From a virus: a stretch of 64,000 nt of DNA. Positions within the stretch are counted from its first letter, which is position 1. Each line of letters begins with the position of its first letter. Below are positions 60,222 through 64,000 of this stretch, one piece after another. Both the position numbers and the translations under genes were made by a program. The stretch spans positions 1-64,000 of IMG/VR virus record IMGVR_UViG_3300032242_003148; one strand, 5' to 3'. The notes beneath the pieces were generated by a model. That model searched no databases. It had not been told where the DNA came from and saw only the letters and a list, made by a program, of their open reading frames with translations.

Positions 60222-60353
60222 CTCATCTGTAGTGTGTTCGAATCCTGTGCTGTCGAATTCCTCCCAATGTCTGGTTCTAAGTCTACTGTAGCAGACCCCA
60301 CTCTGGGTTTTCCGTAAAGGGACGTAGATACACACAAGCACCCTACAGATGAG
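60222..60353 (-). ncRNA. Candidate structured ncRNA
   Basis: Perfect 11 bp terminal stem CTCATCTGTAG/CTACAGATGAG with internal hairpins. Confidence 0.55.
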
Positions 60354-60361
60354 CAAATTGA

Positions 60362-60424
60362 ACGGGGCGCGACTATAGGGCCATCGTCGTTTAATACAAC
60401 CCGACCGCAAAAGGTTGTACCCGC
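60362..60424 (-). ncRNA. Candidate three-way-junction small RNA
   Basis: GCGGG/CCCGT closing stem; hairpins TACAACC/GGTTGTA and CGAC/GTCG. Confidence 0.4.
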
Positions 60425-60426
60425 TA

Positions 60427-60505
60427 GCCAAACTAGGGTAAGCCTTTGTCGTTTACCTAGGAACTTACAGGACGGGGCATGGAGCCCCTTTTCCCCTAGT
60501 TTAGC
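60427..60505 (-). ncRNA. Candidate structured small RNA
   Basis: 12 bp stem GCTAAACTAGGG/CCCTAGTTTGGC whose U-G pair favours the minus strand; GGGGC/GCCCC hairpin; starts 4 nt after tRNA-Tyr. Confidence 0.55.
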
Positions 60506-60509
60506 AAAT

Positions 60510-60594
60510 TGGTGGGTAGAGAAGGACTCGAACCTTCGAACTCCAAGGAGAGGAGATTTACAGTCTCCGGCAATTGCCGCTATGCGATCTACCC
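60510..60594 (-). tRNA. tRNA-Tyr(GTA)
   Basis: GGGTAGA acceptor, GGAGA-CTGTAAA-TCTCC, long variable arm and encoded CCA. Confidence 0.95.
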
Positions 60595-60604
60595 ATTAAA
60601 ATTG

Positions 60605-60677
60605 TGGAGGTAAGGAGACTCGAACTCCTGACATTCTGCTTGCAAAGCAGACGCTCTACCAACTGAGCTATACCCCC
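60605..60677 (-). tRNA. tRNA-Ala(TGC)
   Basis: GGGGGTA/TACCTCC with G3:U70; TCTGC-TTTGCAA-GCAGA. Confidence 0.95.
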
Positions 60678-60678
60678 G

Positions 60679-60753
60679 TGGTGCACGATGAGGGGATCGA
60701 ACCCCCGACCTTGCCCGTGTAAAGGGCCTGCTCTACCGCTAAGCTAATCGTGC
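60679..60753 (-). tRNA. tRNA-Val(TAC)
   Basis: GCACGAT/ATCGTGC, anticodon loop TTTACAC and encoded CCA. Confidence 0.93.
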
Positions 60754-60759
60754 ATTAAT

Positions 60760-61200
60760 TTATTTATTTTTAATCTTTTTTGCTCCAGGTGCAACTATTT
60801 TATAACCTAAAGAAGATAAAGTTTTTTTACTACTCTCTATTTTCTCAGCTATCAGTTTAGCGCAACGTTTTTCAATAGCCTTCAAGGTCAATTTAGCTGT
60901 CTTCCATTCAAGCTCGTTTACTTCAAAATAGAAGTCTGAACCTAACTCTGCTAGTTCATAGTCCACAGGTTCTCCATCTGAGTTTCTTTCTAGGATACTG
61001 CACTGATTTCCGCAGGCACAAGTAACCCATTCACTAGACATCTTGATTTCTTTCTTAAAGCGCTTTCTAGCTTCTTTAATATAATCATCAGACATGTCGA
61101 GATAACTTTTTATTTCTTTTGGCTGTTCTGCTATACGCTCGTCTAGGAATTTATTCCAATCAAACTTTTCTTTATTTTTAGTCTCTGAATATGTTTTCAT
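60760..61200 (-). CDS. Hypothetical protein
   Basis: WVTCACG motif; (AC)n leader. Confidence 0.7.
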   Translation of the reverse strand: MKTYSETKNKEKFDWNKFLDERIAEQPKEIKSYLDMSDDYIKEARKRFKKEIKMSSEWVTCACGNQCSILERNSDGEPVDYELAELGSDFYFEVNELEWKTAKLTLKAIEKRCAKLIAEKIESSKKTLSSLGYKIVAPGAKKIKNK

Positions 61201-61293
61201 TTGTGTGTGTGTGTTAAGATTGTGCGAGTTTTATTTTTATCTCATTGGCCTTTACTCGCATTTGCCCTTCAGTTGGGTGCGACCACAACATAT

Positions 61294-61367
61294 TGGCTAC
61301 CCCGCATGGATTTGAACCATGAATGTTAGTGCCAAAAACTAAAGTGTTACCGTTACACTACAGGGTA
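61294..61367 (-). tRNA. tRNA-Gln(TTG)
   Basis: TACCCTG/CGGGGTA-G-CCA; TTAGT-TTTTGGC-ACTAA. Confidence 0.92.
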
Positions 61368-61376
61368 ATTTAAAAT

Positions 61377-61451
61377 TGGCTCCTGATGCTGGGCTCGAAC
61401 CAACAACATGCGAGTTAACAGCTCGCTGCTCTACCATTGAGCTAATCAGGA
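61377..61451 (-). tRNA. tRNA-Asn(GTT)
   Basis: TCCTGAT/ATCAGGA-G-CCA; GCGAG-CTGTTAA-CTCGC. Confidence 0.95.
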
Positions 61452-61455: not shown

Positions 61456-61639
61456 TTTTGACGGAACGATCCTGCAGAACCTTTTCAACATCCGGGTTAC
61501 CATGGTTAAAGAAGTTACTCAGCACTATTATAGTGTGCCAAACATAAGAGCCCTTCTACCCGACCACACCGGCGCACCTACACCATCGGGGGATGGGGGA
61601 AGGGGCACTCCGGTCGTATTTATGATGCTGCCGTCAAAA
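61456..61639 (-). ncRNA. Candidate ~184 nt structured ncRNA
   Basis: Terminal stem TTTTGACGG/CCGTCAAAA; GC-rich internal helices; abuts tRNA-Asn. Confidence 0.55.
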
Positions 61640-61645
61640 ATCATA

Positions 61646-62275
61646 TTACATATTTCTAAAGATCCAAAATCCTAGCTTGTCTAGGCCTTGGCCTGCTTTT
61701 CTTGAGGTTTTTGCTATGAACCTCCAAGTAGCTGCCCAGTAACCAAAAGATACCTTGTTTAGCACCTTTCTGGTTTTGTTCCATGGATGATTCAGGTCAG
61801 CGTCAAGTCTGGCCCTGAATTCATCATCAGCTTTTTTAACTTCTGCGGCTGTTCTGGTTAGCTCTATTCTGTGGGCTTTAAGTGATAATAACTTACCACC
61901 ATTAAACACAGCCACAAATTCTAGCCACCATTCATTGCCGTCGTTATCGTCTCGCCCTGTGTAGAAATTAACACTCTGGGTAATTTTCTGTTTAACTAAA
62001 GATCTTCCGGTCTCCGTGAATCTAATGTTTGGAAAATACCGGTGCTTCTTCTTTTTAATTTCTTTAATCTCTTTTTCTGACAGCTCCTCGTAAGTTCCTT
62101 CAATTTTTTCTAACAAAAGGTCACCATTCTTTTTGAGGTAATATGTTTGCATACATTCCTCTAGATCTTTCGTCTGGAAATCTACTTTACCCCAATCTTT
62201 ACCCTTAAAAGCTTCTTTGGCTTTCTTGGGCAGGGGCAGGGCTTTTTCTACTATAATGGTATCAAATAATCCCAT
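61646..62275 (-). CDS. Conserved phage hypothetical protein
   Basis: MGLFDTI, FQTKDL and W.EF.A.F..G motifs. Confidence 0.75.
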   Translation of the reverse strand: MGLFDTIIVEKALPLPKKAKEAFKGKDWGKVDFQTKDLEECMQTYYLKKNGDLLLEKIEGTYEELSEKEIKEIKKKKHRYFPNIRFTETGRSLVKQKITQSVNFYTGRDDNDGNEWWLEFVAVFNGGKLLSLKAHRIELTRTAAEVKKADDEFRARLDADLNHPWNKTRKVLNKVSFGYWAATWRFIAKTSRKAGQGLDKLGFWIFRNM

Positions 62276-62276
62276 A

Positions 62277-62483
62277 TTATTCTTTATCCTGGGTGAACCT
62301 AGGATCTTTCTTTAATAGGTGTTTTGGGACTTGGTTTAAAACAATAAGTTTTTCCATCTTTGCGTTAGACACCATTTCTTTCCATTCGTCATCTTTCAAA
62401 CCCTTGGGTCTGTTAGCCATCATTTTTTTAACGTCCCATGTTGGAAGGGATTTAGTAATTTGTTTGGTTTGCCAAATGTGCAT
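62277..62483 (-). CDS. Hypothetical protein
   Basis: ORF packing. Confidence 0.55.
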   Translation of the reverse strand: MHIWQTKQITKSLPTWDVKKMMANRPKGLKDDEWKEMVSNAKMEKLIVLNQVPKHLLKKDPRFTQDKE

Positions 62484-62504
62484 AATTTTATGTGTTAATT
62501 TTAA

Positions 62505-62645
62505 TGATCTGGATGGTCACTACTCCATCACTGTTTTGGTTTCCCTCGGCTTGCAAGCTCGCCCCCGGAATTTCCAGAAGCACAGGGTTGCTGCGGACAA
62601 CTTACCGCGTAGCAAATGTATGTTCTTTTCCATACTGTCAGATCA
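62505..62645. ncRNA. Candidate multibranch ncRNA
   Basis: tgatctg/cagatca closing stem; hairpins gatgg/ccatc, ttgctgcgg/ccgcgtagcaa and gtatg/catac; AT-rich flanks. Confidence 0.45.
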
Positions 62646-62670
62646 AATTTTTATTTATACTGTTGGTTAA

Positions 62671-62973
62671 TTATTGTTCTTCGTATCCTGCGATAATAGC
62701 TGCACAACGGATATAACCGATAGCATCAACGAAGTTATCGCGCTTGGATGTATATACATCCCTGGCCACCTTTAGTAGCATCATCATCATTGCTGCGTCG
62801 TAGGCAGAAATCTCTGCCTCTGGATCTTTTCTAACTGATAGATAAGCATTCCATAGTGTGGATATTCTTTCGTGATTTGGTGCTGGGTGGTCATAGTCTC
62901 TACGACGATCACCAGACGTCAAACGAAGGGCTTCCTCTAGGATGCTTTCTTTTTGTGTGGTAGTTTTACTCAT
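62671..62973 (-). CDS. DUF6378-like protein
   Basis: ILEEA..L..GDR...Y..P...RI..LW.AYL...M.LLK.AR....D...D..GY pattern. Confidence 0.75.
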   Translation of the reverse strand: MSKTTTQKESILEEALRLTSGDRRRDYDHPAPNHERISTLWNAYLSVRKDPEAEISAYDAAMMMMLLKVARDVYTSKRDNFVDAIGYIRCAAIIAGYEEQ

Positions 62974-63006
62974 GGATTTTGACCCTAAGCTAGTATTGCA
63001 GCCCTG

Positions 63007-63228
63007 TCAAACGGATTTCTCGGAATATTTTTCAATAACCTGGTCAGGTCGTTTACCTACCCAAAATATAGCCAAATATGGGGGAGTGTTGTATTGGGCT
63101 ATCTCTTTATAGCTTGTGTTTAATCCTGCTAGGCTGTACGCCCTTTGCATATTCCAGAAGTCATTATAGTTGTCTGCTGTTGCTTCCCACCATTGTGGAA
63201 TTTCTACTGTGGTTTTTTTGTGTGTCAT
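63007..63228 (-). CDS. Hypothetical protein
   Basis: 73 aa ORF with an A/C-rich leader. Confidence 0.5.
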   Translation of the reverse strand: MTHKKTTVEIPQWWEATADNYNDFWNMQRAYSLAGLNTSYKEIAQYNTPPYLAIFWVGKRPDQVIEKYSEKSV

Positions 63229-63256
63229 GTGTTTTATGTTGATAGCTAAAAATTAG

Positions 63257-63337
63257 AGCTCAGGACAGGACTTAAAATACTCCACGTGCCATTGGAGCAT
63301 ACGCCTAATACCAGAGGGTTATTGGTTGTCCTGAGCT
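63257..63337. ncRNA. Candidate structured small RNA
   Basis: Perfect 11 bp stem agctcaggaca/tgtcctgagct enclosing two hairpins. Confidence 0.5.
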
Positions 63338-63608
63338 AGAATCACATTAGCCCTATATAGGCTATGTGGCAAATAAAATTTTCCGGATTGTGTTAGTCAC
63401 TGCCGGACCAGTGCTCCCAAGCCTGAGTGTGTCAGATTTAGAAAATGGTTAATGGTTGTTACTTTATAGGGCTAGAATAAATCTACAGGTTTGGACCCCT
63501 TTGAATTATTCTATCTGTTATTTTTTTGGGCGGGAAAGATATGATATCTCGCGGCCACAGACGGTTGTAACATTAATGATTTAACCGATAAAATACATTA
63601 CCAAATTT

Positions 63609-63767
63609 TCCCAGTAGTTGTAGCTCCTAGATGGTTGATTTCCTTTGTTCTCACATTCATCACCTGTATGCCTATGAGAGGATGTATCGTTTATCTTCAG
63701 GATTTCCACGTATACACACGGCGGCTGACGTGCTTCTCAGTGTGGGTTTTATATACAACTACTGGGA
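63609..63767. ncRNA. Candidate ~160 nt structured ncRNA
   Basis: Perfect 14 bp stem tcccagtagttgta/tacaactactggga in a region with no long ORF. Confidence 0.55.
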
Positions 63768-64000
63768 TAAAAAGTGTTCCTCCACCCGCAGCTAGCTTCT
63801 CTCCCCCATGATGACTAGTCATGTTTCTTATTACTCATGCCTGATATAATAGAGGGATTACACGTGCAGGGAACTGCGGTCTCTTTCGCTTTAACGATAA
63901 CTGTAGTCGTGCAGTATTCGTCAAGCTATGAGCAAGGGGAGCGACCTCACCCTAGGAGGAAAATTAATTGACCTATTCGCCCAAAACGTCTTCGGTCTAC

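Follow-up and report, generated by a model that had tools for sequence, protein, structure and literature searches.

We analysed a window of 64,000 nucleotides, the whole stretch of DNA considered here, from the genome of an uncultured lake phage (166 kb; 165.6-kb assembly, 85% complete). In the region studied all genes are on the minus strand. Five tRNA genes were placed by ARAGORN and Rfam at exactly the positions implied by a first-pass annotation made from the letters alone: tRNA-Tyr(GUA) (60510-60594), tRNA-Ala(UGC) (60604-60677) and tRNA-Val(UAC) (60679-60753), at 52-75 bits, followed by tRNA-Gln(UUG) (61294-61367) and tRNA-Asn(GUU) (61377-61451), at 59-65 bits with RF00005. Five gaps between the minus-strand ORFs are free of ORFs (60200-60509, 61201-61293, 61456-61645, 62484-62670 and 63229-64130, the last extending past the window end at 64000), and folded units tile all of them. 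As had been noted, these gaps are relatively GC-rich, at 45-57% against 30-43% in the adjoining coding DNA. The short AT spacers and tRNA-like packing described earlier also held up: the units lie on the tRNA strand, tightly packed against the tRNA genes, with 0-8 nt between units and tRNAs or tmRNA and 0-22 nt among the units of the tract that follows the tmRNA. Nine of the 12 AATTT words of the region fall within or beside the spacers (249 nt in total), an enrichment partly due to the AT-rich composition of the spacers.

The array goes on beyond the window with a tmRNA interrupted by a T-loop insertion, a pistol ribozyme and further units, and the whole RNA island runs from about 66.8 kb down to 60.2 kb on the genome (6.7 kb). 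The pistol ribozyme, the sole ribozyme found (genome 66362-66430; 60.5 bits against a gathering score of 34.5), lies on the same strand 2.4 kb upstream, and another unit (genome 66540-66655) also belongs to the island. Tracts of 900 nt (63229-64130) and 800 nt flank the tmRNA after and before it, respectively.

Known RNA classes and signals were sought across the array. Rfam 15 (4227 models) was scanned at E-values up to 10 over 59900-64000 and genome 62999-65499, and no unit matched any family, riboswitches and ribozymes included. ARAGORN and RF00005 recovered only the region's five known tRNAs, so that no unit is a tRNA or tRNA pseudogene, consistent with the earlier remark that cloverleafs are absent. 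The Y RNA model (YrlA, RF02553), whose gathering score is 69, reached 19.9 bits, its sub-threshold matches falling on true tRNAs, and no Ro60/TROVE gene was found in the 85% complete genome. When 60200-64000 was compared by blastn (word size 11) with 50,697 phage records in search of homology to T4 rnaC/rnaD, nothing but tRNAs matched. Intrinsic terminators were predicted at three minus-strand sites, all in tRNA-Asn or coding DNA and none within a unit, in agreement with the reported lack of U-tails; terminator-like sites total eight, not in excess of the 5.8 +/- 2.4 seen in shuffles. No sigma-70-like or Bacteroidota-type promoter was detected on the tRNA strand inside the island, and the units carry neither CCA ends nor other recognisable determinants for RNase P or RNase Z.

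The decisive evidence for the units is covariation, measured against five related phage lineages from IMG/VR and JGI data. Four to 17 base pairs are changed on both sides in nine of the eleven units listed by the first-pass annotation, whose central claim, an array of structured non-tRNA RNAs among the tRNA genes, is thereby borne out. Three units (A3, B and C) were taken through controls: for each, the observed value was equalled by none of 500 shuffles, and with slid partners 0-6 such pairs were seen, pairing falling to about 40%. Since shapes are kept in relatives through matched base changes, at least nine units are real, selected RNA structures. Read on the tRNA strand, predicted pairs include 103 G-U cells versus 6 A-C cells, and the consensus fold is more stable on that strand in six of nine units; both place the RNAs on the strand of the tRNAs. 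In all, the gaps contain at least nine unrelated, uncatalogued, single-copy structured RNA modules on the tRNA/tmRNA strand.

All units are read on the minus strand. The first after the tmRNA 3′ end, A1/A1b, occupy ORF-free DNA at 63880-64000 within the window, in a tract reaching genome 64130; A1 itself (63955-64130) has a homologue in lineage L077 (149/176 identical), a partial one in L083 and none in L081. A2 (63786-63879, 94 nt) consists of a closing stem and two inner hairpins, with 6/25 pairs changed on both sides relative to L081. A3 (63609-63767, 159 nt) surrounds a conserved multi-branch core with a 14-bp closing stem; across three lineages 17 of its 50 pairs are changed on both sides, among them nine of the 14 in the closing stem, where 90% of cells are still paired. 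A4 (63447-63586, 140 nt) combines a variable hairpin with a conserved core in which runs of 24 nt and 28 nt are identical between the window and L077, L081 being one base off; 9/37 pairs are changed on both sides. The outer stem first drawn for A4 is not conserved, the conserved closure being GG(U)/(A)CC plus UGUUAC/GUAACA, whereas terminal stems do close A3, A7, E1 and others as proposed. A5 (63378-63445), first listed among the stem-closed units, turned out to have a variable 5′ hairpin followed, in its 3′ half, by a conserved H-type pseudoknot with stems CACUG/CAGUG and UCCGG/CCGGA; stem 2 covaries (CCCAG/CUGGG in L077, UCCAG/CUGGA in L083), and 4/16 pairs are changed on both sides. Between A5 and A7, a small candidate hairpin missing from the earlier list was read from the sequence (63345-63375) and is found only in 99%-identical relatives. 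A7 (63257-63337, 81 nt; 5/26 pairs changed on both sides) is Y-shaped with an 11-bp closing stem and lies 28 nt upstream of ORF73.

Further along, B (62505-62645, 141 nt) is a five-way junction with a 7-bp closing stem, 7/44 pairs changed on both sides and 97.7% of cells paired; it is single-copy and present in all five lineages, always flanked by ORF100 (DUF6378) and ORF68. C (61456-61639, 184 nt) is closed by an interrupted stem of 14 bp; one arm is hypervariable, whereas its internal loop, UUAACCAUGGUA, is invariant and contains the palindrome ACCAUGGU, and 11/58 pairs are changed on both sides. It ends 4 nt ahead of a tRNA, and its downstream neighbour is tRNA-Asn, tRNA-Pro or unit D, depending on the lineage. 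D (61214-61291, about 78 nt; 5/13 pairs changed on both sides) had been drawn as a single closed unit at 61220-61288 and is instead two hairpins with conserved loops, a GGC in the linker and a GCC in the loop probably forming a pseudoknot. D follows tRNA-Gln here and is flanked by tRNA-Asn and tRNA-Gln in L003 and by unit C and tRNA-Ser in L083, each lineage giving it other neighbours, with spacers of 0-5 nt across lineages. E1 (60427-60505, 79 nt) starts 4 nt past a tRNA 3′ end and has two inner arms enclosed by a 12-bp closing stem, with 4/26 pairs changed on both sides, three of them within the closing stem; the preceding gene is tRNA-Tyr here and tRNA-Val in L083, where one arm carries a 21-nt stem extension. 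Two of the eleven listed units stay unproven, as their locus has a homologue in one 97%-identical relative only (L077). E2 (60362-60424, 63 nt), a weak candidate, is 95% identical there, with no informative changes, and is missing in L003, L004, L081 and L083. E3 (60222-60353, 132 nt), also a candidate, has a perfect 11-bp closing stem 22 nt upstream of ORF71; four differences from L077 lie in predicted pairs, all of them compatible with wobble pairing and none disruptive, and the site holds unstructured AT-rich DNA in L003 and L004.

Folding stability gave a mixed picture. At the hand-picked boundaries of the first-pass annotation, on the minus strand, seven units score z between -2.0 and -4.4 (A3 -4.4, A7 -4.0, E1 -3.4, B -2.9, E3 -2.7, A4 -2.5, A5 -2.0) and the other four lie about zero (A2 -0.3, E2 +0.5, C and D about 0), whereas, when 52-70 kb was scanned without bias in 120-nt windows, the gaps, at a mean z of -0.95, did not differ from coding DNA, at -0.84 (p=0.49), so that thermodynamics alone is not evidence. 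A boundary-free count of perfect stems (at least 11 bp, arm GC at least 0.4, span 30-200 nt) found seven in the 165.6-kb genome, of which four, including both 14-bp stems, are in the 6.7-kb RNA island.

Comparison of the lineages shows a modular array, in which whole units appear and disappear as cassettes, with the breaks at their boundaries. L077 lacks A1b, A2, A6 and A7 and has an 11-bp-closed unit of its own after the tmRNA (z -2.8); L081 lacks A1; L003 and L004 lack E2 and E3; and L083 retains only A1, the A5 pseudoknot, B, C, D and E1. Some units stand 0-5 nt from different tRNAs or the tmRNA in different phages. Every unit is single-copy in the genome and, as stated earlier, they share no primary sequence. 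When 66 more distant loci were searched with models R1 and R2 and profile HMMs, only D was detected, in the distant relative L009, where tmRNA and tRNA-Ala flank it at distances of 0-4 nt. The unit families are thus limited to one narrow clade, and a general, essential role is therefore unlikely.

The reading we favour, at a probability of roughly one half, is that the modules are putative independent small RNAs that tRNA-processing enzymes would cut out of a polycistronic transcript, in the manner of T4 RNAC and RNAD. The whole island would most likely be transcribed as long polycistronic RNA, and the lack of internal promoter or terminator signals fits such a transcript. RNase P would cut at the 5′ ends of the tRNAs and tmRNA, while endonucleases would cut the spacers, which are short, AU-rich and in many cases contain AAUUU; together the two kinds of cut could release every stem-closed module as a discrete small RNA, its paired ends shielding it from exonucleases. 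Each module might then work alone in the infected cell, using its conserved loops to act on a partner from the host or the phage. Polycistronic small RNAs had already been suggested in the first-pass annotation; the common strand and the absence of internal signals agree with that suggestion, while co-transcription, the production of discrete RNAs and action in trans are its conjectural part, together with the roles that it named as decoys, sponges or antitoxin mimics.

The position of some units fits cis-acting leaders too. The modules may be parts of mRNAs, either 5′ leaders that protect or regulate small downstream ORFs after tRNA excision, as stabilisers or riboswitch-like sensors, or exonuclease blocks in 3′ UTRs, and we regard this as the less probable account, though one to be taken seriously. 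A7, B, D (in this phage) and E3 have their 3′ ends 13-28 nt before ORF starts, with B, A7 and E3 at 21-28 nt; B and A7 hold a fixed position upstream of a gene, B always between ORF100 and ORF68; and A7 is missing in L077 and L083, a DNA match to ORF73 being likewise missing in L077, the lineage in which it was sought. B, a five-way junction closed by P1, resembles many aptamers, and leader structure could matter because no Shine-Dalgarno sequence was found for the genes of this region. Set against this, D, E1, C, A2-A5 and the unit at 66540-66655 abut tRNAs or tmRNA and either are not beside a start codon or swap neighbours, no expression platform follows the closing stems (neither a terminator nor a start-sequestering helix), and no riboswitch family was matched.

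It is doubtful that some modules are new self-cleaving ribozymes that, besides the pistol, cut the polycistronic transcript. Weinberg et al. in 2015 reportedly found new self-cleaving classes beside known ones in phage-like DNA, and with a genuine pistol on the same strand 2.4 kb upstream this precedent counts for the idea, as do the invariant unpaired nucleotides that A4, A5 and D keep amid freely covarying stems and pseudoknots. No unit matches a known self-cleaving ribozyme, however, no conserved candidate cleavage site is identifiable, and the long perfect closing stems are untypical of small ribozymes.

Similarly improbable is that the units are domains of large GOLLD/ROOL-like RNAs, one for each of the 900-nt and 800-nt tracts around the tmRNA. 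Size, phage origin, tRNA/tmRNA-island position and apparent lake origin fit descriptions of GOLLD and ROOL (PMC12286853), the units follow directly on one another, 0-22 nt apart, and the palindromic invariant loop of C could mediate self-association. Nevertheless, the GOLLD and ROOL covariance models gave no match at E-values up to 10, all supported helices are local to one unit, and in L077, L081 and L083 one unit or another is missing or replaced while its neighbours are unaffected. Because single units come and go in this way, the earlier suggestion of domains of a larger RNA has become less likely, and it retains some plausibility for the 900-nt tract alone. Finally, DNA-level features (mobile inverted repeats, recombination or protein-binding sites) or chance hairpins, which terminal inverted repeats, cassette-like gain and loss and unbiased z-scores equal to those of coding DNA might suggest, are very improbable and largely refuted by the covariation controls: terminal stems change by compensatory substitutions and stay complementary, internal helices covary too, G-U pairs are frequent and strand-specific, and the units, each single-copy, show neither shared end sequences nor the repetition of a MITE or other mobile element.

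Several known systems resemble the independent small RNAs that we propose. YrlA Y RNAs, which act with Ro60, form a long stem from their 5′ and 3′ ends and in phages sometimes lie within tRNA clusters (PMC4201824); the units are likewise closed by a long end-to-end stem but differ in the model scores and the missing Ro60/TROVE gene given above. The island also recalls pistol, twister and hatchet neighbourhoods in having a pistol on the same strand, although its units belong to no known ribozyme class. GOLLD and ROOL are structured RNAs of phages and prophages, of unknown role, often near tRNA islands, the GOLLD linker sometimes containing tRNAs (PMC12286853, with profiles taken from Rfam). Like them, the units are phage-encoded and adjoin a tRNA island; unlike them, they are short, locally closed and individually dispensable, whereas GOLLD and ROOL each have one conserved architecture of 580 nt or >800 nt. 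The proposed release route is that of E. coli 3′ETS-leuZ, reportedly described by Lalaouna et al. in 2015 as a tRNA-spacer-derived small RNA freed from a polycistronic tRNA precursor by tRNA-processing nucleases; that RNA is host-encoded, a short, linear base-pairing sponge, while the folds of the phage units are intricate and include pseudoknots and multi-way junctions. T4 RNAC and RNAD (stable RNAs, species 1 and 2) originate in the tRNA region of T4 and still have no known function (PMC3014915; PMC9697503). The units share no sequence similarity with them, number at least nine to twelve families rather than two, are predicted from sequence and have small ORFs, a tmRNA and a ribozyme interspersed with them; like RNAC and RNAD, which are transcribed with their cluster, they would be small RNAs other than tRNAs, and they lie within a phage tRNA cluster, on the strand of the tRNAs.

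The minus strand carries every gene between 59.9 and 67.3 kb of the genome. In its 5' to 3' direction, this island comprises a tract of about 800 nt without ORFs (genome 66023-66828) that contains a pistol ribozyme, a 260-aa ORF, the tmRNA, a second ORF-free tract of about 900 nt (64130-63229), ORF73 and ORF100 (DUF6378), a gap of 187 nt, ORF68 and ORF209, a gap of 190 nt, tRNA-Asn and tRNA-Gln, a gap of 93 nt, ORF146, tRNA-Val, tRNA-Ala and tRNA-Tyr, and a gap of 310 nt followed by ORF71. The flanking and embedded ORFs match no informative Pfam or PHROG family except DUF6378 and a LAGLIDADG endonuclease. 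The first-pass annotation had proposed about ten non-tRNA structured RNAs among these tRNA genes; the units that it listed were found at their positions, and the gaps are higher in GC than coding DNA. Spacers are 0-28 nt long. On the minus strand of 60200-64000, AATTT occurs 12 times, 9 of them in or beside the 249 nt of inter-unit spacers, typically in the form CCA-AUUU(G/U) immediately 3' of tRNA or tmRNA ends; this enrichment is in part compositional, and the word could be a processing-site motif or merely reflect AT-rich composition. Sigma-70-like or Bacteroidota-type promoter motifs are not enriched, and neither such a promoter nor a terminator is evident inside the island. Terminators were rejected as an identity for the units, since terminator-like sites are absent from all of them, the three reported on the minus strand being in tRNA-Asn or coding DNA.

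Thermodynamic stability was one of the checks that had been proposed for these units. With the original boundaries, which had been picked so as to close stems, seven of the 11 units fold better than dinucleotide shuffles (z -2.0 to -4.4) and the remaining four do not. The check itself proved uninformative: in an unbiased scan with 120-nt windows, gaps and coding DNA have the same distribution of z (p = 0.49), and the mean z of the true tRNAs and tmRNA is only -1.3. We therefore give the thermodynamic test no weight. A count that does not depend on unit boundaries does set the island apart: of the seven perfect stems in the whole genome that reach 11 bp or more with an arm GC of at least 0.4, four, including both of the 14-bp ones, are inside the 6.7-kb island. 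Such long stems are not in excess in more distant relatives having tRNA/tmRNA islands.

Relatives were retrieved using ORF209, ORF68 and conserved 20-21-mers of the units, and they form five lineages (L003/L004/L086; L077; L081/L082/L085; L083; and the more distant L009). L003 and L004 share 99% identity with the window from 64146 to 62277, a stretch that takes in ORFs, and 85-91% from 62275 to 59984, which places a sharp mosaic switch among sister phages at about 62276. L077 has about 97% identity in the last two gaps and 70-85% elsewhere, and in L081 and L083 identity is about 70-75% over the entire region. Extreme constraint on 63229-64146, as might be read from near-100% identity in three phages, was rejected because this segment belongs to the 99%-identical mosaic block with its ORFs; the identity of the post-tmRNA tract in the three phages therefore reflects recent shared ancestry and is uninformative on selection.

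The evidence for selection comes from covariation. Each unit was folded as a consensus across lineages, and pairs were counted when both sides had changed and pairing was kept. Such compensatory changes are found in nine units, 4 to 17 pairs each: in the tract after the tmRNA, A2 (63786-63879; 6 of 25 pairs), A3 (63609-63767; 17 of 50), A4 (63447-63586; 9 of 37), A5 (63378-63445; 4 of 16) and A7 (63257-63337; 5 of 26), and further along the island B (62505-62645; 7 of 44), C (61456-61639; 11 of 58), D (61214-61291; 5 of 13) and E1 (60427-60505; 4 of 26). In the closing stem of A3, nine of the 14 pairs are double-changed among three lineages with pairing largely kept (90% of cells), and three of the four double changes of E1 are within its 12-bp closing stem. 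In controls on B, C and A3, none of 500 shuffles equalled the real alignments in pairing, in number of double changes or in covariation score; with the 3' partners slid by 1-3 columns, pairing was 34-45% instead of 94-98%, with 0-6 double changes. Two further structural details can be read from the alignments. The 3' half of A5 forms an H-type pseudoknot, with covariation in stem 2 (UCCGG/CCGGA, CCCAG/CUGGG, UCCAG/CUGGA), and in D the linker triplet GGC pairs with GCC of a loop, probably as a pseudoknot, a G-to-A change in L009 being matched by C to U. The units E2 (60362-60424) and E3 (60222-60353) are found only in the window and the nearly identical L077; E3 has four differences in predicted pairs, all wobble-compatible, a comparison of two near-identical sequences that has little power. 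We put the probability that the units are selected RNA structures at roughly 95%. Unit C also holds an invariant unpaired internal loop, UUAACCAUGGUA (61497-61508, minus), containing the 8-nt palindrome ACCAUGGU, which could serve in RNA-RNA dimerisation or as a protein site.

Could the conserved element be DNA rather than RNA? The predicted pairs include 103 G-U cells versus 6 A-C cells, a count in which some bias is to be expected, the folds having been predicted on that same strand. When the reverse complements were refolded, the consensus was weaker in six of the nine units, equal in two and slightly better for D. Together with the covarying internal helices, the G-U excess and the refolding point to RNA of the tRNA strand and not to a DNA element.

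Comparison of the lineages shows that the units behave as cassettes, and they are probably independent modules. L077 is without A1b, A2, the small hairpin at 63345-63375 and A7, has no DNA match to ORF73, and carries directly after its tmRNA a different unit closed by 11 bp (z -2.8). L081 is without A1, and L083 retains only A1, the A5 pseudoknot, B, C, D and E1. The A1 homologue of L083 is interrupted by about 555 nt (L083:556-1111) in which the array strand has no ORF of at least 40 aa; additional units specific to that lineage may be present there. In L003 and L004, E2 and E3 give way to AT-rich DNA without structure, and ORF146 to tRNA-Asp. B, C and D are present in all lineages of the clade, and the tRNA set differs (Asn/Gln, Pro/Gln, Ser/Val and others). 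The placement of D is particularly like that of a gene, its spacers being 0-5 nt wherever it occurs: in the window it follows tRNA-Gln, L003 has it between tRNA-Asn and tRNA-Gln, L083 between unit C and tRNA-Ser, and L009 between the tmRNA and tRNA-Ala.

The Rfam scan, also suggested at the outset, returned no match of any unit to any of 4227 families, at gathering scores or at E up to 10. GOLLD and ROOL, which are known non-tRNA RNAs of phage tRNA islands (PMC12286853), were rejected on this basis, as were Y RNA, riboswitches and known self-cleaving ribozymes. tRNA pseudogenes were likewise rejected, given that ARAGORN finds no extra tRNA and the Rfam tRNA model has no match in the units. In the whole genome, the D and B models match only D and B themselves, respectively, so the units are unrelated, single-copy families. 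A 20-mer of unit C matched six IMG/VR contigs; among metagenome contigs it gave three matches, two of them duplicates and one a chance coding match (L084), and it occurs in none of 185,579 bacterial and archaeal species genomes. When 66 loci of more distant relatives were searched with covariance models for D and B and with profile HMMs for ten units, the only additional member was D in L009. On these searches, the unit families belong to one narrow phage clade.

The record totals 165,606 bp (estimated completeness 85%), of which the window is the first 64 kb, and encodes the terminase, DNA polymerase, helicases and UvsX-like recombinase of a large tailed phage. Among 50,697 deposited phage genomes, megablast and blastn found no close DNA relative, the only matches being tRNAs. 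Because Shine-Dalgarno sequences are not enriched at gene starts across the genome (13% versus 11% background; e.g., starts 63228, 62973, 62483 and 61200) and leaders before gene starts are A-rich and G-poor, the sequence suggests a Bacteroidota-like host.

Several other elements neighbour the units. The tmRNA is interrupted in its T-loop, 16 nt from the 3' end, by a 651-nt insertion just past the window (L001:5448-6098, genome 64147-64797) that holds the 136-aa LAGLIDADG endonuclease ORF on the opposite strand. The insertion is present in the window phage, L004 and L077, where the tmRNA model scores only 35-39 bits; the tmRNA is uninterrupted in L003, L081, L083 and L086 (76.8 bits, with a tag peptide by ARAGORN). 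Its junctions are consistent with group I rules (a U precedes the 5' junction, and G ends the insertion), and no Rfam group I model matches it. Upstream of the tmRNA, the pistol self-cleaving ribozyme (genome 66362-66430, minus; L002:3363-3431) scores 60.5 bits against a gathering score of 34.5 and is conserved in L003 and L004, and an extra unit at genome 66540-66655 has a 14-bp closing stem and double changes in 11 of its 39 pairs. Elsewhere in the window, the abiF RNA motif gives a borderline match (56887-56922, minus; 37.3 versus a gathering score of 37), and L003 and L004 have the identical sequence. A 350-aa ORF without a Pfam family precedes this match, and a 63-aa ORF follows 20 nt downstream; no Abi_2 gene is evident.

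In the simplest model, the island would be transcribed as a long polycistronic RNA, RNase P would cut at the 5' ends of the tRNAs and tmRNA, and an endonuclease would cut within the AU-rich spacers, freeing stem-closed, exonuclease-resistant small RNAs. This release would resemble the origin of RNAC and RNAD, which derive from the tRNA region of T4 and whose role is still not known (PMC3014915; PMC9697503). We consider it an even bet that the units are freed as discrete RNAs that act in trans. Where B, A7 and E3 are concerned, the main rival is that they are cis-acting leaders. New ribozymes among the units, or a giant RNA of the GOLLD/ROOL kind, are unlikely and unsupported. Ro60, RtcB and CCA-adding enzyme genes, sought as possible partners, were not found in the 85%-complete genome. 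That the units form a toolbox of new RNA classes, with new self-cleaving ribozyme(s), decoys disarming host tRNA-targeting or RNA-sensing defence proteins, and cassettes swapped in an arms race, is improbable. As selected RNA structures, they provide at one locus at least nine small, well-delimited, covariation-supported RNAs with natural gain and loss variants in sister phages, next to a tmRNA, a mobile insertion and a ribozyme. This is a compact system for asking whether they are released by the tRNA-processing machinery, whether any is catalytic and what they bind, and the catalogue of structured RNAs gains about ten candidate families from it.

That phage tRNA clusters encode RNAs other than tRNAs has been recognised for fifty years, first from RNAC and RNAD of T4 and more recently from GOLLD and ROOL, and we know of none of the four with an established function. 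The kind is already known; the families and their density are new. About 7 kb accommodate no fewer than nine units that are proven, and candidates number twelve or more, no two of them alike; tRNAs, small ORFs, a tmRNA and a pistol ribozyme lie between them, and sister phages exchange the units as cassettes.
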